A DNA stretch of 64,000 nt from a virus. Lineage: Duplodnaviria > Heunggongvirae > Uroviricota > Caudoviricetes. The DNA is taken from the IMG/VR virus record IMGVR_UViG_3300031994_005355. One strand, written 5' to 3'. Shown in pieces: positions 1,431 through 48,182 of this stretch (the first letter of the stretch is position 1; every line of letters starts with the position of its first letter). The position numbers were made by a program, and so were the translations under genes. Below the pieces are notes generated by a model that saw only the letters and a program-made list of their open reading frames with translations, had not been told where the DNA came from and ran no database searches.

Positions 1431-1838
1431 ATGAACAATTATCATTCACATAATCGACACAAATATCTTCTACAGTTTCATTTGATATTTGTAGTGAAAT
1501 ATCGTAAAGCATTACTAAATATTAAGAAGATTGACGAAGATATTAAACAATTATTATTTGACAGTTGTCAGAAATACAATGTAGAAATTAAGTACATGGA
1601 AACAGATAAAGATCACTGTCACATGATGATCTCTACAGATCCAACAATCAGATTGTCTGACTTAGTCAGGTCTATGAAGTCATTTTCAGCATTTCATATT
1701 TGGAAAAAGCACGAAGGTATCCTTAAGAACTTCTTTTGGAAAGAACGTACATTCTGGACAGATGGCTACTTCATATCCTCTATTGGAGAAGTATCAGAAG
1801 AGACATTAAAGCAATATATAGAAAATCAAGGAAAATAA
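1431..1838 (+). CDS. tnpA: IS200/IS605 Y1 (HuH) transposase TnpA
   Basis: 135 aa; HuH-like HSHNRH motif near N-term, conserved KYRK, C-terminal TDGYFISSIG catalytic-Tyr region typical of IS200/IS608 TnpA. Confidence 0.85.
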   Translation: MNNYHSHNRHKYLLQFHLIFVVKYRKALLNIKKIDEDIKQLLFDSCQKYNVEIKYMETDKDHCHMMISTDPTIRLSDLVRSMKSFSAFHIWKKHEGILKNFFWKERTFWTDGYFISSIGEVSEETLKQYIENQGK

Positions 1839-1861
1839 GAATAAGAAAGGAGGTAGTATAC

Positions 1862-3475
1862 ATGGCAGACAGATATGAATTTTTACAAATTGTTGATAAT
1901 GTTCTTTATTATAAAAACTTTGGTTATGATAGCAAATTAAATGTTCTACATTATTTACTTAATGCTATTACTCTACAACATGAGCTACTTCCTATCTTTC
2001 ACAAAGTTAGCTCTGAAGAAGGTTTTTATTCTATTTACTGTACATTAAATAGTAAATACTATAATGTATTTCTAAATGGACACAGACAAAAGCTATTAGT
2101 CTCTAATGGTAAGAAGAGATTTCTAAATCAAATAATGGGTAACTGTAGATTACTCTACAATCGTATGGTAGCTAGAAACAATTACTGCATAGATCATAAA
2201 GAAGATACATTTGTGAAAAAATATGCTGAGTATACCAATCGTGGTTATAAGAATTATCATGATGGATATACATTACAATATGGTGAATATTTAACCTATG
2301 GTAGATATGATAAGAAGACTGAATCTTACTCACTATTAGTTTCTTATCCCAAAGAAGAAACTTTCTTTAATGGTTATTCCAGTATGTACTACAATTGCGT
2401 ATTACAACATTTTTTAGAAGCACGTAACCGTGCTTTTAAGGGACTTGGTAAGAGACCAACCTTTAAGAGTAAACATGGAAGTCAGAGTTGCCAGTTATCT
2501 TGTAACTGCTCAACTGATAGTTATGGATATAAAAACTTCAATTATTTCCAGCTCTTTAGTGTAGGGTACAATATGCATGATTATTCAGGCAGTAACAGAA
2601 CTAAGGTAGCTAAACTTTTTAGAGTAAATGAGGAGAATAATTGGAGAAAACCTAGATGTCAACACAGATTAGGTCTAAATCTAAACAAATCATGTACTAC
2701 TATTCAATCAAGAGATAAGTCTTATGAAATCAACACACTGACATTTACTATGTCTAAAAATCGTAAACCTGTATCTGCATATCTTAAGGATGATAACTTT
2801 GGAGCTAAGACAGTAACAATAACACGGGAGCCAAATGGTAAGTATTATGTATCTTTTCCAGTATGGGATTGTGTCGAAGTTCCTGAACCTAATGATAATG
2901 TAGTAGCATTTGACTTTGGAGTTAAAACTTTTCTTACATATTCAGATGGCTCTACAGAGGAAATGCCCAAATTCTTCGATGTCTACAAGAAACATCTTGA
3001 CAGAGTAAACACTGCTCTCCAAGGTACAACTAAGAACTCTAAGAAACACAAGAAGCTTCAATGTAAATTGGCTAATATTCATGCAAAGATCAAAAATTCC
3101 AGACGCAATTTCCATCATCAACTGACTCACAAAATGGTAAGTGAAAACCAAGTTATCATTAGTGAGGATCTTGATATTAAGGAAATGCTTCAGAATAAAT
3201 CTTTGCCTGCAGAGTTCCATCGTCATGTCGCTGACGCTTCTTGGTACGAGTTCACAAGACAATTAGAGTACAAATCTAAACGCTATGGAAGAACTTACAT
3301 CAAAGTTCCAAGACACTTTGCCTCATCTCAAATTTGCTCTAAATGTGGTAAGATCCATACTGAGATGAAAGATCTTTCCAATCGTCAAATGATTTGTAGT
3401 TGTGGAAACAACATCGATCGAGATCACAATGCTGCAATCAATATTGAGCAATTAGGTCTCTTAATGATATCGTAA
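1862..3475 (+). CDS. tnpB: TnpB (OrfB) RuvC-like RNA-guided nuclease, 537 aa
   Basis: ATG 1862 (M43 of track ORF) after GGAGGT RBS; RuvC-I VVAFDFGVKTF, RuvC-II IISEDLDIKEM, zinc finger CSKCGK...CSCGN, RuvC-III DRDHNAAINI. Confidence 0.85.
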   Translation: MADRYEFLQIVDNVLYYKNFGYDSKLNVLHYLLNAITLQHELLPIFHKVSSEEGFYSIYCTLNSKYYNVFLNGHRQKLLVSNGKKRFLNQIMGNCRLLYNRMVARNNYCIDHKEDTFVKKYAEYTNRGYKNYHDGYTLQYGEYLTYGRYDKKTESYSLLVSYPKEETFFNGYSSMYYNCVLQHFLEARNRAFKGLGKRPTFKSKHGSQSCQLSCNCSTDSYGYKNFNYFQLFSVGYNMHDYSGSNRTKVAKLFRVNEENNWRKPRCQHRLGLNLNKSCTTIQSRDKSYEINTLTFTMSKNRKPVSAYLKDDNFGAKTVTITREPNGKYYVSFPVWDCVEVPEPNDNVVAFDFGVKTFLTYSDGSTEEMPKFFDVYKKHLDRVNTALQGTTKNSKKHKKLQCKLANIHAKIKNSRRNFHHQLTHKMVSENQVIISEDLDIKEMLQNKSLPAEFHRHVADASWYEFTRQLEYKSKRYGRTYIKVPRHFASSQICSKCGKIHTEMKDLSNRQMICSCGNNIDRDHNAAINIEQLGLLMIS

Positions 3476-7850: not shown

Positions 7851-7952
7851 AAATTATAAATCACATAAAACAAGAAACAGCCATGACACATGTTTCTCCT
7901 ATTGTTGTTTTAGCGAATCTGGTTGTGGGTTCTATGCCTTAAACCCTCACCT

Positions 7953-8036
7953 GCAGGTATGGCGTAATTGGTAGGCGCAAAGGACTTAAAATCCTTTGGA
8001 AGTAATTCCGTGCCGGTTCAAGTCCGGCTACCTGTA
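7953..8036 (+). tRNA. tRNA-Leu (anticodon TAA), type II with long variable arm
   Basis: Acceptor gcaggta/tacctgt, D-arm with GG, anticodon stem aagga/tcctt with loop cttaaaa, variable hairpin ggaa-gtaa-ttcc, T-arm gccgg-ttcaagt-ccggc. Confidence 0.75.
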
Positions 8037-8118
8037 TTGCTACATATTTTTACTATATTTATTATATAATAATAGTAAGAAATAAATTATTTTTATATCA
8101 CTGAAAGGAGCTGTTAGA

Positions 8119-10517: not shown

Positions 10518-12044
10518 ATGAGAAAAACTTGTCTTGTAAAACAAGTTGTGCGTATACGACTTTATCCAAATAAAACTCAACAGATATGGCTTGACTGTAA
10601 TTTTCAAAATGCAATTGACTATCATAATTATCTCCTTGCAAATATTTATGAAGATGACGTGGAAATTGATGAAGAAACTGGTGAAGAAAAAGATGTTATT
10701 AGAATAAACTGGGATACTATAAATAGTAAATATGGATTGGCAACATTACAATCTAAATTCCATTATGCTCTTAGAAATGTTACAGAAGATAGAATACGTA
10801 CAGATCGAAATAATTTAAAGATTACACAGTATTATCGTGGACGTACTATTGAAAATATTTATGATCAAGTATGCAATGACGTTAAAAAGAACTTTTGTAC
10901 ATTTTATCGTGATGGTAAAGGGAAACCAAGATTTAAATCAAACCGTGGTAGAGTAACATTTAGGATGCCACAAAATAGCCGTGACTTACATTTAGTAAGA
11001 CGCAAAGATGAAATGAATCATGATAATGGTTTTGATTTCAAAATTAATAGAATTGAGAAGAAACACAGCTCTAAATTATCTCATAATTTAGGTTGGTTAC
11101 ATATACCATCTTGCGGTGCTGGTAATGATAATGCTGATGATTTTATAAAGTGCTTTGCACCATGTAACATAAGTAAGGAAGATATCAGTTCTATCACATT
11201 TATACGTGAAGCATCTGGAAAGTATTACGCCACTATTGTATTACGTATAGGAAGAGTCTATTTATTTAAAAAGCAAGCACTTGATGATATGTTATGTGAA
11301 AAACAAGTAGGTGTTGACATAAATCTTTCACCTAAAACAAGAGTAGTTACTAGTACTTTTCAGGGTGATGTTACTGAGTTCAAGTTCGAACAAAAAGAAG
11401 AGATAATACAAGCACCAACACCATATAAAGATTATTTCTCCAAACTACGTAAAGAGCAACGTTCACTCTCTCGCAAAGTAAAGTTTTCTAAGAATTGGTT
11501 TAAGCAAAAACAAAAGGTTGCTCACATTCATGAAAAGATTGCAAATATACGATTGAATTTCAATAGACAAACAGCAGCCTATCTAACCAAGAATTACCAA
11601 TCAATCGCAATCGAAGATTTGAGTATTACTCAAATGAAACGTGGTCAACCACGTTGGTTCCAGAAGCTCTACAATGATGCTAACCTATACCAGTTACGAC
11701 AGTGTATTCGCTGGTCTTGTCTTAAGACAGGAAGAGAACTAAACTACGTTTCACCAGAGCATACCTCAAAAACTTGTCATGATTGTTGGTACACTAATCA
11801 TGATTTGAAACTAGGACAGAGTTCCTGGGTATGCCCTAACTGTGGGGTAATCCATCATCGAGATAGGAATGCTGCTAGGAATATCTACAGCCTTGCATGG
11901 GCCTATGACGAGGTTGAAGGTGAATTATTAGAGAATCAAGTAACCTATGATCCATTCGAAGAGCGACAGCCAGTAAATAATCTCTATTTCCTAGAAAATC
12001 TTTCAAAACGTATTGGAGAAGAAGTAACAACAGTTTCAGCTTAA
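10518..12044 (+). CDS. tnpB: TnpB (OrfB) RuvC-like nuclease, 508 aa
   Basis: RuvC-I VGVDINLSP, RuvC-II IAIEDLSITQM, Zn finger CHDCW...CPNCG, RuvC-III HRDRNAARNI. Confidence 0.85.
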   Translation: MRKTCLVKQVVRIRLYPNKTQQIWLDCNFQNAIDYHNYLLANIYEDDVEIDEETGEEKDVIRINWDTINSKYGLATLQSKFHYALRNVTEDRIRTDRNNLKITQYYRGRTIENIYDQVCNDVKKNFCTFYRDGKGKPRFKSNRGRVTFRMPQNSRDLHLVRRKDEMNHDNGFDFKINRIEKKHSSKLSHNLGWLHIPSCGAGNDNADDFIKCFAPCNISKEDISSITFIREASGKYYATIVLRIGRVYLFKKQALDDMLCEKQVGVDINLSPKTRVVTSTFQGDVTEFKFEQKEEIIQAPTPYKDYFSKLRKEQRSLSRKVKFSKNWFKQKQKVAHIHEKIANIRLNFNRQTAAYLTKNYQSIAIEDLSITQMKRGQPRWFQKLYNDANLYQLRQCIRWSCLKTGRELNYVSPEHTSKTCHDCWYTNHDLKLGQSSWVCPNCGVIHHRDRNAARNIYSLAWAYDEVEGELLENQVTYDPFEERQPVNNLYFLENLSKRIGEEVTTVSA

Positions 12045-18442: not shown

Positions 18443-19984
18443 ATGTTAATACAGTACGCAATGTTACCTGTAATCCTTATCATTCTTGGAGTTATAATCC
18501 TACTTACTATTTTAGCTTCTGGATATGTCAAGGCTCCACCTGACATGGCTTTTATCATTTCAGGTATGCATAAGAATCCACGTATTCTTATAGGACGAGC
18601 AGGAATAAAAATTCCGTTCTTTGAGAGAGTCGATCGTCTATATCTTGGACAGATGACAGTTGACATTAAAACTGAACAGCCGGTACCTACAAATGATTTT
18701 ATCAATGTAAATGTGGATGCTGTCGCTAAGATCAGAATTATCACGGATACAGAAGTTGAACTAAACGTGAATGGAAACGTAGTAAAGGAAAAAGGAATAC
18801 TCCTCGCATCGAAGAACTTCCTTAATATGTCACCTGATCGTATTGCAAACGAACTTATGGACTCCCTACAGGGTAACATGAGAGAAATCATCGGAACACT
18901 CGACCTACGTTCTATAAACACAGACAGAGATAGTTTCTCAGACCAGGTTATGGAGAAAGCTAGCAAGGACATGGCTAAGCTTGGTATCGAGATAATCTCA
19001 TGTAACATTCAGAACGTTACCGATGAGAATGGTCTAATCAAAGATCTCGGTGCAGACAATACCTCTAGGATTAAGAAGGATGCAGCCATAGCAAAAGCAA
19101 ACGCCGACAAGGAAGTTGAAGTAGCACAGGCTGAAGCAAGTAAAGAAGCTAATGATGCACGTGTCAGTGCTGAAGCTGAAATAGCTCAGAAGAACACAGA
19201 CCTTGAAATCAAGAAAGCTGAACTAAAGAAAATGTCTGAAACAAAGCGTGCAGAAGCAGAAGCAGCTTTTGAGATTCAGAATCAGATACAGCAGAAGTCT
19301 ATAAAGACAGAGACCGTTAATGCAGAGATCGCACAGGCGGAAAGAGAAGCAGAGCTGAAAGAGAGACAGGTTCTTGTGCGTCAGCAGGAGTTAGCTGCTA
19401 CTGTTGAAAGAGAAGCAGATGCTAAGAAGTATGCAGCTGAAAAAGAAGCAGAAGCAAAACTCATACAGACACAGAAAGAAGCAGAGGCAATCCTCTACAA
19501 GCAGATGAAAGAAGCTGAAGCAATCAAGGCACAGGGTGAAGCTGAAGCTGCAGCCATCAGTGCTAAGGGTAAGGCTGAAGCAGATGCAATAGCAGCAAAG
19601 GGTCTGGCGGAAGCTGAAGCAATGGATAAGAAAGCAGAAGCTTACAAGAAGTACAATGGAGCCGCTATGGTTGAGATGTTTATCAATATTATGCCACAGA
19701 TGGCTGCTGAGATCGCTAAGCCGCTGTCCACGATTGATAAGGTAAATATCTATGGAGGAAGTGGAGCTGACAATGGTGTGTCTTCTATGTCTGGGAACCT
19801 TCCACTTGTGATGCAGCAGGTGATGGATACTATGACTGAAGCTACAGGTGTTGACATGCGGGAGATCATCAAGGCAGGAACATATGATGCTAAGGTCAAC
19901 AAGAACGTGAATGTGAATGGTCTTGACAATCTGGTCAAAATTGAAGAGACAAAGGTTGAGAGTCCTGTGGAAGAAAAGAAATAA
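18443..19984 (+). CDS. flotillin-like SPFH/Band-7 protein (FloT/YuaG family) with EA-repeat coiled coil
   Basis: N-terminal TM, PPDMAFIISG, SPFH core, long EA/AEAEA repeat region, C-terminal GAAMVEMFINIMPQMAAEIAKPLSTIDKVNIYGGSG closely matching B. subtilis FloT C-terminus. Confidence 0.85.
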   Translation: MLIQYAMLPVILIILGVIILLTILASGYVKAPPDMAFIISGMHKNPRILIGRAGIKIPFFERVDRLYLGQMTVDIKTEQPVPTNDFINVNVDAVAKIRIITDTEVELNVNGNVVKEKGILLASKNFLNMSPDRIANELMDSLQGNMREIIGTLDLRSINTDRDSFSDQVMEKASKDMAKLGIEIISCNIQNVTDENGLIKDLGADNTSRIKKDAAIAKANADKEVEVAQAEASKEANDARVSAEAEIAQKNTDLEIKKAELKKMSETKRAEAEAAFEIQNQIQQKSIKTETVNAEIAQAEREAELKERQVLVRQQELAATVEREADAKKYAAEKEAEAKLIQTQKEAEAILYKQMKEAEAIKAQGEAEAAAISAKGKAEADAIAAKGLAEAEAMDKKAEAYKKYNGAAMVEMFINIMPQMAAEIAKPLSTIDKVNIYGGSGADNGVSSMSGNLPLVMQQVMDTMTEATGVDMREIIKAGTYDAKVNKNVNVNGLDNLVKIEETKVESPVEEKK

Positions 19985-29644: not shown

Positions 29645-29782
29645 GCTGTGGTGGCGGAAAAGGTAGACGCTTATTCTAATAAGGAAAGTTACGACACATT
29701 GCCTCTTTTATTAGGGGCCTGAAGTATGACCGTTGGAATACTTTTCATGCGAGGTGACAGAAATACAAATCCTCGTCCACAG
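29645..29782 (+). ncRNA. non-canonical tRNA-like RNA X1
   Basis: Canonical tRNA 5-prime half (acceptor gctgtgg, U8, D-arm gcg-gaaaaGGtaga-cgc with A14/G18G19/A21), ~80-nt variable insert, conserved 3-prime module atgcgaggtgacagaaatacaaatcctcgtc (6-bp stem, 16-nt loop) then acceptor complement ccacagt; paralog of X2. Confidence 0.4.
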
Positions 29783-29801
29783 TGATTTTGAAAGGTAAGT
29801 A

Positions 29802-30395
29802 ATGAAGCATATAATAAAATGTATAGTAACATTACTGTTACTTGTAATAGTAAATACGACCAGTTGCTTTGCAGCAACTAAATATAGAGTTTCTTTTCCT
29901 AAAGACTACAATGTTCTTCTAGTAGGGGACTCTCGGACTGTCGGAACAATGAAGACAGTTGATGTTGATAACATAGCCTACGTATGTGAGGTAGGTCAAG
30001 GTTATAAATGGCTGAACAATAAAGCTCAATATGATATTATTCAAAAAACAAAACCAGGTACAAAAGTTGTTTTTAACCTTGGTGTTAATGATGTGAGTAA
30101 TAAAGAATGGTACAAGCACATGTATAATTACTTAGCAAGGACACTACAAGATAGAGGTTGTCTAGTGTATTTCGAAACTGTTAATCCAGTATCGGAGAAA
30201 TGCAATCACCCATCAAATAAGGACATTGATGAATTCAATAGTTACATGTTCAAGTATCTTGAAGGTGTATCATTTATCAACACAAATGACTACTTGAAGA
30301 ATAACGGTTATGAAACAGTTGACGGTCTACACTACACCGAGGATACAACACAAAAGACATTTGACTATGTCAGTGAAGTGCTTGCACTCGAGTAA
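29802..30395 (+). CDS. secreted SGNH/GDSL-family hydrolase (esterase/lipase-like)
   Basis: Signal peptide; block I LLVGDSRTVG (GDS), block III LGVNDV, block V DGLHYT. Confidence 0.65.
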   Translation: MKHIIKCIVTLLLLVIVNTTSCFAATKYRVSFPKDYNVLLVGDSRTVGTMKTVDVDNIAYVCEVGQGYKWLNNKAQYDIIQKTKPGTKVVFNLGVNDVSNKEWYKHMYNYLARTLQDRGCLVYFETVNPVSEKCNHPSNKDIDEFNSYMFKYLEGVSFINTNDYLKNNGYETVDGLHYTEDTTQKTFDYVSEVLALE

Positions 30396-30415: not shown

Positions 30416-30640
30416 GTGCCTATGGATAAGAAAGAACTGTATAAAGAGAACCTTCTACGTGAATATCGTAGTATGTTCAGAGCTCTTTGCCGTATGACAT
30501 CTTACTATGAGAAACTCACTACAGACGGTTTTGTATTAAATGATGAAGATAAAACGTTTATAAATACAGTTATAGATAAAACTGAAAATCATTTCATTAA
30601 ACGAATAAATAATTGGGTATCTAAAGGAAGGCTAAAATAA
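30416..30640 (+). CDS. small protein translationally coupled to downstream nucleotidyltransferase
   Basis: 74 aa; stop TAA overlaps next ATG (TAATG). Confidence 0.4.
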   Translation: MPMDKKELYKENLLREYRSMFRALCRMTSYYEKLTTDGFVLNDEDKTFINTVIDKTENHFIKRINNWVSKGRLK

Positions 30641-31134
30641 TGACATATAGAGGTGAAATTGTAGGTGCACTTAATAGAGTTAATAATCTACTAAAAGGTC
30701 ATAATTTATATGCTGATTTAACTATAGTTGGTGGTTCAGCATTAATATTGAATGGTATAAACTCTATAGAAACTATTGATATTGATACTTGTAATACGTT
30801 AAGTAGAGAAGTTAAAGAAATATTTGAAGATTGTTCAGTAGATATAAATGATGATGCAAGAGAATATGAAAGTAATTATGAAGGTTTAGATTTTATAGAA
30901 CCAGACTGGTTACAGTTCAGTAATATCACGACACGTTATTTAGACATTGGCGGTGTTGTAGTAACAAAAATGAAAGATACAAATCCGGATAAATTGAACA
31001 ATCTAGCTTATGTTTTGAACGAAGAATTGGGTGTAGATTTAACTGTTGATTCTATCAGCAAATGGTTTGAAGATCAAAATGTAGATTATGATACTACTGA
31101 TATAGAAAACTTTTTGACTGAAATTGATTACTAA
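30640..31134 (+). CDS. nucleotidyltransferase-fold (Pol-beta-like/MNT-like) protein
   Basis: IVGGSALILNGINSIETIDID matches hG[GS]x9-13DxD NTase motif. Confidence 0.5.
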   Translation: MTYRGEIVGALNRVNNLLKGHNLYADLTIVGGSALILNGINSIETIDIDTCNTLSREVKEIFEDCSVDINDDAREYESNYEGLDFIEPDWLQFSNITTRYLDIGGVVVTKMKDTNPDKLNNLAYVLNEELGVDLTVDSISKWFEDQNVDYDTTDIENFLTEIDY

Positions 31135-33306: not shown

Positions 33307-33427
33307 ACTTGGGTGACGGAATAGGTAGACGTTTTAAGGTCAAAAGTAAAGTTCCAGTGTTGAGAACGCACAATGAAACTAGGGCTGACTATGCGAGGTG
33401 ACAGAAATGCAAATCCTCGCCCCAAGT
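33307..33427 (+). ncRNA. non-canonical tRNA-like RNA X2 (immediately upstream of tmRNA)
   Basis: acceptor acttggg/cccaagt, D-arm acg-gaataGGtaga-cgt, variable ~60 nt, conserved module atgcgaggtgacagaaatgcaaatcctcgcc; acceptor stems of X1 and X2 differ but both pair (covariation). Confidence 0.4.
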
Positions 33428-33431
33428 ATAA

Positions 33432-33810
33432 GGGCCTGTACTGGTTTCGACGGGGATATAAAAGTACAACTTGCATCGGGTGGTCACCTATAACCAACTT
33501 AAATACAGACGCTAAGCCTGTAGCTATGGCTGCTTAATCTTAAGATTAAGTAGTTCCGACTTGTTCGGCTCTGTTAGAGATGTTGCACACTAACTCAACT
33601 CTACAGTGACTAAAGTAATTACGTGTGATGTCGGCAACTCAACAAGCGTGAGATACAGTCAATCCGATGAAACTGTGATATCGCTAACCCTATCGGTAAT
33701 GGTTTGTTGTATGCCTAGTAACAAGGGTAAATGTTACTGAAATATGAATAAGATGTAGATGGTTGTATGACTAGTATTTTCGGACAGGGGTTCGACTCCC
33801 CTCAGGTCCA
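33432..33810 (+). ncRNA. ssrA: tmRNA (ssrA)
   Basis: 5-prime GGGCCUGUACUGGUUUCGACGGGG matches tmRNA 5-prime consensus; 3-prime T-arm aggggttcgactcccct and acceptor caggtcc pairing with 5-prime gggcctg; internal ACUUAAAUA followed by frame ...D A K P V A M A A TAA (tag-like); terminal CTA instead of CCA. Confidence 0.75.
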
Positions 33811-33826
33811 CTACAAGGAGGAAGCT

Positions 33827-43645: not shown

Positions 43646-43717
43646 ATGCCCCGTAGTCAAGAGGTAAGGCATCGGACTTTGACTCCGTCATTCGCGGGTT
43701 CGAATCCCGCCGGGGTA
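43646..43717 (+). tRNA. tRNA-Gln (anticodon TTG)
   Basis: Acceptor tgccccg/cggggta, anticodon loop ctttgac, T-arm gcggg-ttcgaat-cccgc; resembles bacterial tRNA-Gln. Confidence 0.8.
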
Positions 43718-43737
43718 GTTTATTAAAGGATTAAATC

Positions 43738-45198
43738 ATGACTACATTAAATATTGAGGAACTGCTTTATTCAAATAGTATATGGGAATCAGTACTGGGT
43801 GAAATGTGGGTACGTAAAGTAGAACCTGAAACGGTTGCAAGAATTACTATGTTAGATTATCGCTACGATATTTGTAATAAACTTATTACAGGTAGTTATA
43901 AATTTAATCCACCTAAATTAGTACATATACCGAAAGATGATGGAACACTGCGTGATCTTCTTATTTTAGAGGACCAAGATAGGATAGTCATGCAGGTTCT
44001 ATATAAAATATATTATAGTTTATACAAAAGCAATATTCATTCATCATGTATGAGTTATCAGACTGGAGTATCTGTAAAAGATATTGCTGTACAAATACGT
44101 AACGGACTTAAATCAGAGTTACAGCGTTATAAACTTGATATATCAAAATATTTCGACTCTGTGCCTCAAGATGTAATAAACAGAGAATTGAATAATATGG
44201 ATCCTACATCTGGACCAACAGTATCTCTTTATAATTTCTATAATGATAACCGTATCATTGTGCATGGTAAAGAAGTTGAGCATTTCAAATCATTATGTCA
44301 AGGTTGTTCATTTAGTGCATTACTAGCAAATGTTATACTCTATGATATTGATGAATATTTATCAGCGCACGCTGATATGTATATCCGTTATTCTGACGAT
44401 ATGTACATTCAAGATGCTAATGTTAATGCATTAATTGTTAAAGCAAAAGAGATGCTTGCTCATAAAGGTCTCATACTAAAAGACTCTAAGGTTCAGCAAC
44501 TTGCAACCTCATTTGATTTTGTTGGTGTACATATTTCACCTACTAGACTATCCATAGGTAAAAAAGGATTAAGAAATATATGCAATAATATCAAACAAAA
44601 GTTGAAGAATAAAACTAGTCTTGAAAGAGCAATACGTGCAGTGCAGAGTTATTTATTATCTTCTGATACTAATGGTTATTCAGCACTAAGTTATTGGTTT
44701 AATATTTGTACAAATGTGGATGACATTATAAAGTTGGACAGAATGATTAAAGATGAAATAAGATATCACTTCACCAACAAACATAATATTGTACATAATA
44801 TACATCAGTTACCTAATCAAGCTTTCAAAGAAAGTGGTTGGGTGTCACTTGAATATTTATACAGATTGTACAAACACGATAAGAATGCATATAAAGCATA
44901 TAGTGCTTACATTCTGCATAAGTATATGCTTACACCTAGTAAGATACGTTCGTATATGACAATTGATAAGATATCTAGTGATTTACTCAAATTTTGGGAA
45001 ACAGCAAAATATGCTAAGCATAGTCCATTTATAACGTATGAAAAACCACTAGATGTTGATTTCAATATCTCATCGTATGAAAGTAATACTGCACGAGAAT
45101 ATATGTGTAACATCATTAAAAATGCAACAATTGATTTTGGTGAGGATAAGTTCATAAAAGTAACTGATGAGTTATTTTTATTTAAAGATTGGTTTTGA
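43738..45198 (+). CDS. reverse transcriptase (group II intron/retron/Abi-UG lineage) with thumb-like C-terminal extension
   Basis: RT1-2 LVHIPKDDGTLRDLLILEDQDRIVMQVL, RT3 YKLDISKYFDSV, RT4 QGCSFSALLANVIL, RT5 YIRYSDDMYI, RT6 GLILKDSKV, RT7 FDFVGVHI; ~190 aa after RT7. Confidence 0.85.
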   Translation: MTTLNIEELLYSNSIWESVLGEMWVRKVEPETVARITMLDYRYDICNKLITGSYKFNPPKLVHIPKDDGTLRDLLILEDQDRIVMQVLYKIYYSLYKSNIHSSCMSYQTGVSVKDIAVQIRNGLKSELQRYKLDISKYFDSVPQDVINRELNNMDPTSGPTVSLYNFYNDNRIIVHGKEVEHFKSLCQGCSFSALLANVILYDIDEYLSAHADMYIRYSDDMYIQDANVNALIVKAKEMLAHKGLILKDSKVQQLATSFDFVGVHISPTRLSIGKKGLRNICNNIKQKLKNKTSLERAIRAVQSYLLSSDTNGYSALSYWFNICTNVDDIIKLDRMIKDEIRYHFTNKHNIVHNIHQLPNQAFKESGWVSLEYLYRLYKHDKNAYKAYSAYILHKYMLTPSKIRSYMTIDKISSDLLKFWETAKYAKHSPFITYEKPLDVDFNISSYESNTAREYMCNIIKNATIDFGEDKFIKVTDELFLFKDWF

Positions 45199-47534: not shown

Positions 47535-48182
47535 ATGGATATAATGACAATAATATCTTTTCTTACTGCACTGGGTAATACTATGACACACCCTGAGACA
47601 ATAGTAATATGTGGTGGTACTTCTATCGCATTGGAACATGGATTTAGACAATCGACTGAAGATATTGACTGCATAGAGTGCAGTGCTTATACAGCAAAGA
47701 TAGCACATATAATAGCACGACATTACACTTTGCATATAGCATTAAGTAGTCATGTTTGTGTAACTGACTCGTACAGTCCAAAGTTATTGTATTATGCAAC
47801 TACTTATGGTAAGTTTGGAAATCTTACTGTAAAAACAATATGTGGTGTACCATTACTTTGTATGAAGTTAAAGTCATATCGTCAAAATAGTAAAGATAGG
47901 ATTGACTGTGAATTTCTACTCAAAGAAGCAATTACTTATGGAAAGACGTACGACGATGTTCTTACTACGTTCAAAGACATTTATGGTAATGAAGCACTAA
48001 TGCCTATAGCTGCTGAGACAGCTTTACGTAGAGCATTCAACATACAAAATGTTGAAGAGATACAGGATAAACTTTCTAAGTTTTCAAAACTTATCAATGA
48101 TGGTCTTCTTAGTATAAATGACATTCCGGTAGAATATCGTAATCAAATTCTTGAATATACTTTGGAGAAGGCTGATGACTAA
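47535..48182 (+). CDS. nucleotidyltransferase-fold protein
   Basis: ICGGTSIALEHGFRQSTEDIDCIE matches GGxS...DxD NTase motif. Confidence 0.5.
   Translation: MDIMTIISFLTALGNTMTHPETIVICGGTSIALEHGFRQSTEDIDCIECSAYTAKIAHIIARHYTLHIALSSHVCVTDSYSPKLLYYATTYGKFGNLTVKTICGVPLLCMKLKSYRQNSKDRIDCEFLLKEAITYGKTYDDVLTTFKDIYGNEALMPIAAETALRRAFNIQNVEEIQDKLSKFSKLINDGLLSINDIPVEYRNQILEYTLEKADD

Follow-up and report, generated by a model that had tools for sequence, protein, structure and literature searches.

Two elements, X1 and X2, located in a 64,000-nucleotide stretch of DNA from a tailed phage (Caudoviricetes; IMG/VR record IMGVR_UViG_3300031994_005355; the whole stretch is referred to below as the window), are very probably folded, tRNA-shaped, non-decoding RNAs of one family. 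This RNA family is large, occurs in hundreds of phages of Bacillota and of rumen and gut bacteria, and is apparently unannotated. Judging from the sequences, it descends from a type-II phage tRNA, with a D-arm that comes from tRNA-Leu(UAA), and it has kept the top half of the tRNA (acceptor, U8, D-arm with A14, A15 and G18G19, the AU dinucleotide preceding the T stem, and a T arm with the CAAAU part of its loop). On balance, we favour the view that its members are tRNA-Leu-derived non-decoding RNAs that tRNA enzymes mature and that imitate, in trans, the acceptor and elbow of a tRNA; taken by itself, this mechanism of mimicry or decoy is put forward tentatively.

The verdict on the fold rests on comparative evidence, because the thermodynamics of the single sequences are weak: the folding check proposed in an earlier note on the window, which a model had made from the letters alone, gave z-scores of -1.6 (X1) and -1.2 (X2), with the acceptor and T stems nonetheless retained in both minimum free energy (MFE) folds. 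That note had taken X1 for a functional folded tRNA-like RNA and not a pseudogene, given that the acceptor stems of X1 and X2 differ in sequence and yet both pair, and this covariation was found to extend to about 200 homologues. In total, 195 distinct members were pooled, three helices covary among them, and all true matches share the same plan, namely a self-complementary 7-bp acceptor of variable sequence, UG, a D-arm (family consensus G[C/U/A]GG-AAWAG(N)GUAGA-C[G/A/U]C), a middle part that varies, the dinucleotide AU, a T stem of 6 bp and its loop, followed by the acceptor 3' strand and an unconserved discriminator, with no CCA. In the MAFFT alignment of 36 members (A1), from which the covariance model R1 was built, 97.4% of the 576 scaffold cells are paired and 13 of the 16 pairs show changes on both sides (acceptor 7/7, D stem 2/3, T stem 4/6), a covariation that was reached by 0 of 500 shuffles and by no slid register. 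An independent set was obtained by anchoring on the D-arm and taking the first TGCAAAT downstream, with no pairing demanded; there, the acceptor is 96% paired, compared with 55% (maximum 60.5%, 500 permutations) when the strands were re-paired between sequences, and pairing in the six T-stem positions reaches 93-99%, each of them occurring as several pair types, with the outermost one varying between G-C, C-G and A-U. All seven acceptor pairs of X1 show compensatory changes both in the 36 homologues and in the independent set of 90. The D-stem variants covary as well (GCG/CGC, GTG/CAC, GAG/CTC, ACG/CGT), and T8, G9, A14, A15, A17, G18 and A21 are invariant in A1; the U of the AU that precedes the T stem may form a Levitt pair (A15/U48) with the invariant A15. 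No covariation indicative of pairing between the 16-nt T loop and the D loop or the linker was seen by eye.

Within the window, X1 and X2 resemble each other only in a T-arm block (29 nt, 96.6%) and a D-arm block (20 nt, 90%). Flanks and inserts show no relation between the two, which excludes duplication of a longer coding or insertion sequence (IS) fragment as an explanation. The recurrence of the T-arm module in X2, already seen in the earlier note, was confirmed, a 27-nt module being present exactly twice in the window compared with 0 occurrences in 100 shuffles. The type-II tRNA 5' half had likewise been recognized correctly as nearly identical to tRNA-Leu: the D-arm is almost that of phage tRNA-Leu(UAA), with U8, A14 and G18G19 in place, and position 16 of the D loop is A in X1 and T in most relatives and in phage tRNA-Leu(UAA). 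The pairing of the 3' end with the acceptor strand holds over 7 bp, but the end had been placed one base short (the strand ends at 29783 and the discriminator is at 29784).

The anticodon arm (a 5-bp stem and a 7-nt loop with U33 and the anticodon) is missing from X1, X2 and all 195 relatives, so that no decoding is possible. Its position is occupied in most members by a linker or mini-hairpin of 5-13 nt, often TTA..TAA (UUA..UAA) around 3-6 nt, and beyond it lies a further stem (the V stem) that is anchored just before the invariant AU. The 3' strand of the V stem ends in ...YC-AU-[T stem], while the 5' strand begins with G(G/A)U, 5-13 nt past the D-arm in most members. Family-wide, this stem averages 6.0 bp, compared with 4.0 bp in shuffled inserts; its interior measures 4-131 nt, stem and interior together reach about 145 nt, and as little as 21 nt may separate the D-arm from the T arm. 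On sequence grounds, the linker or mini-hairpin is what remains of the anticodon arm, and the domain that follows, with the geometry of the long variable arm in type-II tRNAs, is an expanded variable arm and not a foreign insertion, which corrects the earlier description of an ~80-nt insert. The central hairpin that had been proposed for this insert (ctaataa/ttattag) is not conserved in the closest relatives of X1, where covarying GGAAAGT/ACTTTTC stands in its place. The interiors of the V stems form classes that recur across different phages. For instance, the class of X1 comprises L043:598-737, L143:1108-1247 and L145:1917-2054 (collected loci are cited by L numbers), for which the RNAalifold consensus keeps GGAAAGT/ACTTTTC and inner stems with compensatory changes, and the X1-type domain (core UACGRC...GACCGUUGGAAU) was also found together with 7- and 8-nt T loops (L226, L174). 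Strings of the type CUGAUGA..GAAAC in some variable-arm domains were considered as hammerheads and rejected, as they are simple hairpins in which Rfam gave no hammerhead match.

Other expansions and reductions of the same scaffold were noted. One subfamily has a D-loop insertion of ~40-55 nt (GGAAUAGAC[...]UAGUAGAC) together with a plain UGCAAAU loop (L005:6145-6325, L080:5306-5470 on the - strand, L118:737-889). A minimal form of ~52 nt, which consists of the acceptor, a D-loop remnant (GUGGAAUAUAGAC) and the T arm and has neither variable nor anticodon arm, is present in the Enterococcus phages phiFL2A (L267:2484-2547) and IME197 (L269:1996-2047), where it sits in the gap between ArpU and terminase next to a genuine tRNA. 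In L173, about 100 nt upstream of its element, there is a mini element (gcggcgagtggttgaaagccgggttcgattcccggtcgccgca) made of a 7-bp acceptor, an 11-nt linker and a canonical T arm.

The T arm, which the earlier note believed to be replaced by another module, is present as a 6-bp stem with a UG/CAAAU loop that carries a 9-nt insert. A D-arm-only anchor (TGGCGGAATAGGTAGACGCTTA) retrieved at least 120 IMG/VR loci from which 111 elements were extracted, and in 78 of these the loop is the 7-nt UGCAAAU, the commonest form. Since this is the dominant form, the loop of X1 and X2 is read as the expansion of a subfamily, with the general form UG-ACAGAAAU(N)-CAAAU, i.e., 9 nt (ACAGAAAUN) inserted after UG. 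It reads TG-ACAGAAATA-CAAAT in X1 and TG-ACAGAAATG-CAAAT in X2, the 3' ends being UACAAAU and UGCAAAU, respectively, and variants that are one base off exist (UGACAGUAAU.., ..GGAAU.., ..AGAGAU..). Among the pooled 195 members, TGCAAAT occurs 86 times and the 16-nt type 89 times, the rest being minor variants, and these proportions are not prevalences because the two pools came from different search patterns. Ordinary-sized loops (UGCAAAU, UGUAAAU or UUCAAAU) are found in many copies, and the normal T loop of the window's own tRNA-Leu(UAA) aligns to the 3' part of the 16-nt loop in R1. A hairpin-containing T-loop insertion of ~50 nt (UGAC...CAAAU) was observed in L224 (element start GGCAGAGTGGCGG...), L194, L222 and L161, at the same point as the 9-nt insert of X1 and X2.

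Members were collected by several searches. The 20-mer GGTGACAGAAATNCAAATCC gave 19 IMG/VR loci and a slightly longer pattern 108 metagenome loci, mostly from rumen and gut according to sample or record names. R1 detected X2 (90.5 bits, E = 2e-19), X1 (87 bits) and tRNA-Leu(UAA) (25.8 bits) and nothing else in the window, and in the loci already collected it found further copies without the exact 20-mer. BLAST of the conserved D-arm and T-arm blocks against INPHARED matched at least 126 records of cultured phages (short-block matches), with Enterococcus (30), Listeria (27), Lactobacillus (24), Bacillus (18) and Leuconostoc (13) as hosts, followed by Brochothrix, Weissella, Geobacillus and Paenibacillus; all genus-listed hosts are Bacillota, and there was one extra record of a Tenericutes phage. 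The Bacillus-phage matches include phi3T and SPbeta-like phages. Full elements were recovered with R1 in Bacillus phage KLEB27-1 (64.1 bits), Leuconostoc phage Ln-9 (61.5 bits), Bacillus phage phi3T (47.6 bits), Paenibacillus phage Pd_22F (44.9 bits), Listeria phage vB_LmoS_188 (44.8 bits), Geobacillus phage PK3.5 (36.3 bits) and Deep-sea thermophilic phage D6E (35.4 bits). Large rumen phages have several copies in each genome, and nearly all matching INPHARED records have no annotated feature under the match.

The scan of reference genomes with the 20-mer yielded true members at only 3 of 17 loci (Erysipelotrichaceae, Succinivibrio and Lachnospiraceae contigs of metagenome-assembled genomes). 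The remaining matches were rejected; most of them fall in a conserved protein-coding gene whose reverse strand reads ...GGATTTGTATTTCTGTCACC... and which, by reading alone, we take to be similar to an aldo-keto reductase. The DNA 20-mer GGTGACAGAAATACAAATCC lies reversed in a conserved protein gene of many bacteria (L021-L027, L029, L032-L036), and pattern searches with A at the variable position of the 20-mer are prone to false positives from it.

Existing tools and databases did not recover the family. ARAGORN made no call for X1 or X2, intron and relaxed modes included, and neither of them matched any family of Rfam 15, RF00005 included, at gathering score or E <= 10, a check that the earlier note had suggested. 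With the same thresholds, a scan of X1 and X2 together with 33 related loci gave chance matches only, such as SNORD60 (wrong strand), DUF2815 (14 bits) and a T-arm fragment of mascRNA (12 bits), which were discarded. No description of the family was found in the literature, also when sequence strings were used as queries; the IMG/VR survey of candidate structured RNAs (PMC10690425), which mentions unspecified tRNA-like candidates, may list members. The idea that X1 represents a new class of phage tRNA-like RNA is retained insofar as neither Rfam 15 nor the searched literature contains it, but X1 and X2 form only one subfamily of a widespread family of Bacillota phages.

The genomic context differs between large and temperate phages. 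In large phages, the elements lie within tRNA arrays with spacers of 3-6 nt, and 17 of 93 elements have a tRNA, a tmRNA or a sibling element at most 10 nt away, in all cases on the same strand. For instance, the order in L041 is tRNA-Tyr, 4 nt, element, 3 nt, tRNA-Leu, in L009 two tRNA-Ser genes flank the element, and tandem copies are found in L043 (four in ~1 kb), L038 (three) and L005 (five or more). Temperate siphophages carry the element in the long non-coding gap after the late activator (RinA/ArpU/sigma-like) and before HNH and terminase genes; a hidden Markov model (HMM) built from four late activators had a same-strand match within 2.5 kb upstream of 20 members. In phi3T it lies between yonN and yonK. 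A promoter-like TATTAT..(A)TCGAAAGA was found just past the late-activator genes and ahead of the element (L267:2100-2140, L182, L257, L147, L223, L187), and it is possibly the late promoter with the transcript start. No conserved partner protein was found beside the element in the ~10 kb around each match, the largest neighbour clusters (DUF3310, terminase, SPFH, holin, endolysin) reaching no more than 9 of ~130 loci.

Several other RNAs were seen near members of the family. L090 carries a tmRNA, located among more than 20 arrayed tRNAs and over 2 kb away from its copies of the element, as well as a cow-rumen-3 RNA (105.6 bits) in the tRNA array (L090:10474-10613, - strand). A type II hammerhead is present at L166:13915-13980, and a DUF3800-VIII RNA lies near the element of phi3T (L266:3863-3928).

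The coordinates of X1, X2 and the other RNA genes discussed are given in Table 1. Both elements are placed in intergenic gaps, on the strand that bears 84 of the 94 predicted open reading frames (ORFs), and scans for sigma-70 promoters and terminators around them gave counts at chance level. The tmRNA gene begins 3 nt past the discriminator of X2 and is a neighbour, outside the element; this spacing is as tight as that between tRNA genes and suggests co-transcription and shared processing.

Table 1 Anatomy of X1 and X2 and position of the tmRNA and tRNA-Leu(UAA) genes in the window
Feature	Position	Strand	Remarks
X1, whole element	29645-29784	+	End includes the discriminator
X1 acceptor, 5' strand GCTGTGG	29645-29651	+	Pairs with 29777-29783
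X1 U8-G9 and D-arm	29652-29670	+	GCG/CGC stem; loop GAAAAGGTAGA with A14, A15, G18G19
X1 D-arm sequence GCGGAAAAGGTAGACGC	29654-29670	+	Read from the sequence
X1 linker/mini-hairpin TTATTCTAATAA (RNA form UUAUUCUAAUAA)	29671-29682	+	Occupies the anticodon-arm position
X1 variable-arm (V) stem, 5' strand GGAAAGT	29683-29689	+	Pairs with 29740-29746
X1 variable-arm interior, 50 nt, with inner stems and conserved UACGRC ... GACCGUUGGAAU	29690-29739	+	RNAalifold consensus with compensatory pairs
X1 variable-arm stem, 3' strand ACTTTTC, then invariant AU before the T stem	29740-29748	+	A103/T104 invariant in alignment A1
X1 T arm, 6-bp stem GCGAGG/CCTCGT and 16-nt loop TGACAGAAATACAAAT	29749-29776	+	Stem strands 29749-29754 / 29771-29776
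X1 acceptor, 3' strand CCACAGT, and discriminator G; CCA not encoded	29777-29784	+	Strand ends at 29783, G at 29784
X2, whole element	33307-33428	+	Same plan as X1, different acceptor stem
X2 acceptor ACTTGGG/CCCAAGT; discriminator A at 33428	within 33307-33428	+	Anatomy from the sequence
X2 D-arm	33316-33332	+	Followed by the 5-nt linker TTTAA (UUUAA)
X2 V stem GGTCA/TGACT	33338-33342 / 33386-33390	+	
X2 T arm, loop TGACAGAAATGCAAAT	33393-33420	+	
tmRNA gene of the phage	33432-33813	+	ARAGORN; Rfam RF00023, 110.8 bits; complete, tag AKPVAMAA*
Genuine tRNA-Leu(UAA) of the same phage	7952-8037	+	R1 25.8 bits, E = 7.5e-4

The phage of the window is very divergent: most of its ORFs have no Pfam or PHROG match, and no close relative was found in INPHARED. 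Among the ORFs that could be assigned is a reverse transcriptase (43738-45198, +; best PADLOC match to the defence-associated class UG27, 218.6 bits) that begins 20 nt after a tRNA-Gln gene (43647-43718), together with two TnpB/Cas12f-like ORFs (OrfB_IS605 and TNB domains; 1736-3475 and 10518-12044, +). An SPFH/flotillin-like protein is encoded at 18443-19984 (+), and related Band_7 ORFs occur in five RNA-carrying loci (L045, L011, L016, L041, L145). In addition, the window contains two distantly related ORFs with the DUF6036 nucleotidyltransferase fold (30640-31134 and 47535-48182, +), of which one lies ~850 nt downstream of X1, while the other, whose N-terminal part weakly matches AbiEii-like proteins (E = 2e-4), overlaps the end of a small ORF adjoining tRNA-Leu(UAG). 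The DUF6036 ORFs were considered as partners of the RNA and dismissed, as relatives are absent near other family members.

The nearest known RNA is the phage tRNA-Leu(UAA), with which the family shares the 7-bp acceptor, U8, a D-arm that is identical in most relatives (TGGCGGAATAGGTAGACGC), a variable arm of the form GAT../..ATC that is separated from the T stem by 2 nt, and the position in tRNA arrays. Descent from tRNA-Leu is concluded from the identical D-arm, from the fact that this tRNA is the sole other match of R1 in the window, and from the GAT/ATC base of the V stem with its 2-nt spacer, so that tRNA-Leu(UAA) is likely the ancestral type. In contrast to tRNA-Leu, the family has no anticodon arm, its variable arm extends to ~145 nt, G1 and A73 are unconserved, and the T arm consists of a 6-bp stem with UGCAAAU or a 16-nt loop where tRNA-Leu has a 5-bp stem and UUCAAGU. 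Of the features of a canonical tRNA, the acceptor, U8, A14 and G18G19 are present, while the 5-bp T stem, a 7-nt UUCRANY loop and a score of at least 29 bits are absent.

Similar comparisons were made with other tRNA-like RNAs. The tRNA-like domain of tmRNA, of which phage-encoded copies exist, also combines an acceptor and a T arm with a large insertion at the anticodon-arm site, has no anticodon and matures in the manner of a tRNA; however, it lacks a D stem and has G3:U70, a canonical T loop, pseudoknots and a tag ORF, none of which applies to the family, where the D stem is present and covaries and pair 3-70 is UA, CG, GC or AU and never GU. The Y RNAs of YrlA type, which are bound by Ro60/Rsr, contain elements resembling a D-arm, a T arm and an acceptor, keep the nucleotides of tertiary contacts, are in some cases cut by RNase P and CCA-tailed, and occur in phages (PMC4201824). 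They end in a Ro-binding stem, with the tRNA module internal, rsr adjacent and a GNCGAAN0-1G motif, whereas the RNAs of our family have acceptor-stem termini and no conserved Ro60 gene in their vicinity, and Rfam gave no match; the TROVE domain had no match among the ~55 window ORFs scanned against Pfam. The staphylococcal non-proteogenic tRNA-Gly, also of Bacillota, share TGC/TGT in place of TTC in the T loop (PMC7826273), but they are complete, bear an anticodon and have a defined aminoacylation identity, while identity elements are unconserved in the family. Species 1 and 2 of T4 (rnaC, rnaD) are stable RNAs of ~139 and ~119 nt in a phage tRNA cluster, rnaC having a T arm and an acceptor-like closure; they differ in having no D-arm, no sequence similarity and different folds, and the match in size with X1 and X2 is coincidental. 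As relatives they were rejected, since R1 finds nothing in the T4 tRNA region, and they are analogues at most. Finally, mascRNA/MALAT1-type elements and viral 3' tRNA-like structures also use the tRNA fold outside decoding and are read by RNase P, RNase Z or the CCA-adding enzyme, but they belong to eukaryotes or RNA viruses and are unrelated in sequence, and mascRNA keeps a hairpin resembling the anticodon arm. With these defining features tested and found absent, the family is placed outside the tRNA, tmRNA, YrlA and T4 rnaC/rnaD groups.

In the reading that we favour, the element would be co-transcribed with neighbouring tRNA, tmRNA or late genes, its 5' end would be released by RNase P and its 3' end by a CCA-less pathway (RNase Z), a route suggested by the presence of an encoded CCA in only 1 of 195 members (compared with 30 of 237 genuine tRNAs of the same loci) and by T/A-rich (U/A-rich in RNA) trailers. 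The mature RNA would then mimic the acceptor and elbow of a tRNA in trans, occupying or diverting a host or phage factor and never entering decoding; candidates for this factor are a tRNA-targeting defence enzyme or a tRNA-sensing or -processing factor, and the variable-arm domain would add class-specific binding. That the RNA acts through its acceptor and elbow surface is suggested by the impossibility of decoding. A mimic in trans, be it a decoy, sponge or handle, is preferred because two observations on the T loop coincide with the loop change of the family. On the one hand, TGC or TGT instead of TTC marks the non-proteogenic tRNA-Gly genes of S. aureus, whose products are diverted from the ribosome (PMC7826273); on the other hand, prokaryotic Schlafen nucleases, which require the UUC motif, cleave tRNA between U54 and U55 (PMC13462974), so that enzymes reading the T loop exist, and the loop change and expansions of the family are located at or beside this cut site.

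Taken further, the family could be a modular 'tRNA chassis' system. In this rather speculative proposal, the top half, in which UUC is missing or the loop is expanded precisely at the U54|U55 site of T-loop nuclease cleavage, would act as a bait that can be neither cleaved nor translated, directed at immune enzymes that attack tRNA (Schlafen-like T-loop nucleases, AbiEii/MenT-type 3'-end nucleotidyltransferases) or at a tRNA-sensing regulator, and the swappable expansions of variable arm, D loop and T loop would supply effector or aptamer domains specific to each class.

Several points weigh against mimicry in trans. Position 1 is mostly A or U (G in 41 of 195 members) and the discriminator is unconserved (A 87, T 65, G 27 and C 16 of the 195), both of which are atypical of substrates of RNase P or aminoacyl-tRNA synthetases, and the acceptor and T stems stack to 13 bp instead of the usual 12. 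No gene for a partner protein is conserved next to the element, and no single common target is evident, because the variable-arm interiors share no universal motif. In addition, a role in cis fits equally well, since the element of small temperate phages is always found in the leader between activator and packaging genes.

Such a role is the main rival, albeit an unlikely one in our estimate. It supposes that the fold is a processing or punctuation signal of the late leader or of another polycistronic transcript, recruiting RNase P and RNase Z for its cleavage, by which mRNA ends and stability would be set, comparable to mitochondrial tRNA punctuation or to MALAT1/mascRNA, and that the excised RNA is functionless. 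The discriminator of X1 (29784) is followed after 17 nt by the next ORF (start codon at 29802), and the + strand shows no terminator; the leader position in temperate phages, after the activator (20 loci) and the promoter-like motif and ahead of HNH and terminase, would suit such a signal, as would the ~52-nt minimal form reduced to acceptor and T arm, the unconserved discriminator and the lack of an encoded CCA. Yet many copies stand in pure tRNA arrays or in tandem, where there is no ORF to punctuate (L043, L038, L009, L041), and a bare cleavage site leaves the near-invariant D and T loops, the class-specific variable-arm domains and the loop expansions unexplained. In several phages, moreover, genuine tRNA genes share the late-leader gap with the element, so that the leader may be just where phages put highly expressed RNA genes.

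Weaker than the cis signal, and improbable, is a function as an aminoacyl carrier for non-ribosomal chemistry, in which the RNA would receive CCA, be charged, most plausibly by LeuRS, and donate its amino acid to a Fem-type, L/F-transferase-like or lipid-modifying transferase, while the ribosome would not accept it. Bacterial LeuRS requires neither the anticodon nor the variable arm, and the D-arm and tertiary nucleotides of the family are of tRNA-Leu type, these core nucleotides being present in both X1 and X2. The confinement to phages of Bacillota and of rumen and gut bacteria would also agree with a carrier, as would the T-loop triplets TGC/TGT, which distinguish the tRNA-Gly that serves peptidoglycan synthesis in S. 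aureus (PMC7826273). What ranks it below the cis signal is that only 45-51% of members have A73, on which bacterial LeuRS identity chiefly depends, that G1 is rare and that CCA is not encoded. A73 varies even within one cargo class, and the siblings in the window differ as well (G73 in X1, A73 in X2). Furthermore, AlaRS would find no G3:U70, positions 1 and 72 form A-U or U-A in most cases and at times do not pair, the frequency of encoded CCA is far from that of the neighbouring tRNAs (1/195 vs. 30/237), and no transferase gene is conserved nearby.

The other explanations hardly survive. A reading without RNA function, either as a tRNA-Leu pseudogene in decay or as a DNA-level repeat such as a remnant of recombination or of an att site, could account for the unconserved discriminator and first base pair and for the high conservation of a 20-nt loop block at the DNA level, but it is effectively refuted by the three helices kept by compensatory changes over ~200 sequences from very different phages, by the presence of several diverged paralogues per genome, by the unrelated flanks of X1 and X2 and by a conservation that spans rumen megaphage contigs to 28-kb dairy phages. 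Equally refuted in effect is a decoding tRNA-Leu that would lose one or two introns, situated in the anticodon/variable region and the T loop: the 5' half and acceptor are canonical, the T loop minus 9 nt gives a 7-nt loop and inserts of ~50 nt occur at the same loop point elsewhere, and yet no anticodon-stem halves or anticodon loop flank the insert in any member, the D-to-T region goes down to 21 nt and to none in the Enterococcus form, inserts of 21-145 nt are too short for group I, the intron mode of ARAGORN and Rfam gave no intron, neither a group I core nor a bulge-helix-bulge motif is present, and the element-carrying phages also have an intact tRNA-Leu(UAA). An RNA related to tmRNA or accessory to trans-translation, as the 3-nt distance of X2 from the tmRNA and the similar topology might suggest, is effectively excluded by the full D stem, by the absence of G3:U70, a tag reading frame, pseudoknots and an RF00023 match, and by the fact that adjacency to tmRNA is seen in this window only.

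Mimicry of tRNA by small RNAs is already known (tmRNA, YrlA, mascRNA, viral tRNA-like structures), and the present family appears undescribed. It bears on the use of phage tRNA-like genes beyond codon supply, on the ways in which tRNA-targeting defences are countered, and on the limits to which the tRNA scaffold can be remodelled, with one arm lost, expansions at three sites and the core kept. It also exposes a recurrent gap in the annotation of phage genomes that a single covariance model can fill. As the family is present in tractable phages (phi3T and those of Listeria, Enterococcus and dairy bacteria), its function is directly testable, and, if the chassis proposal is true, well-studied phages would harbour, so far overlooked, a new and widespread class of RNA-based factors for counter-defence or host takeover.

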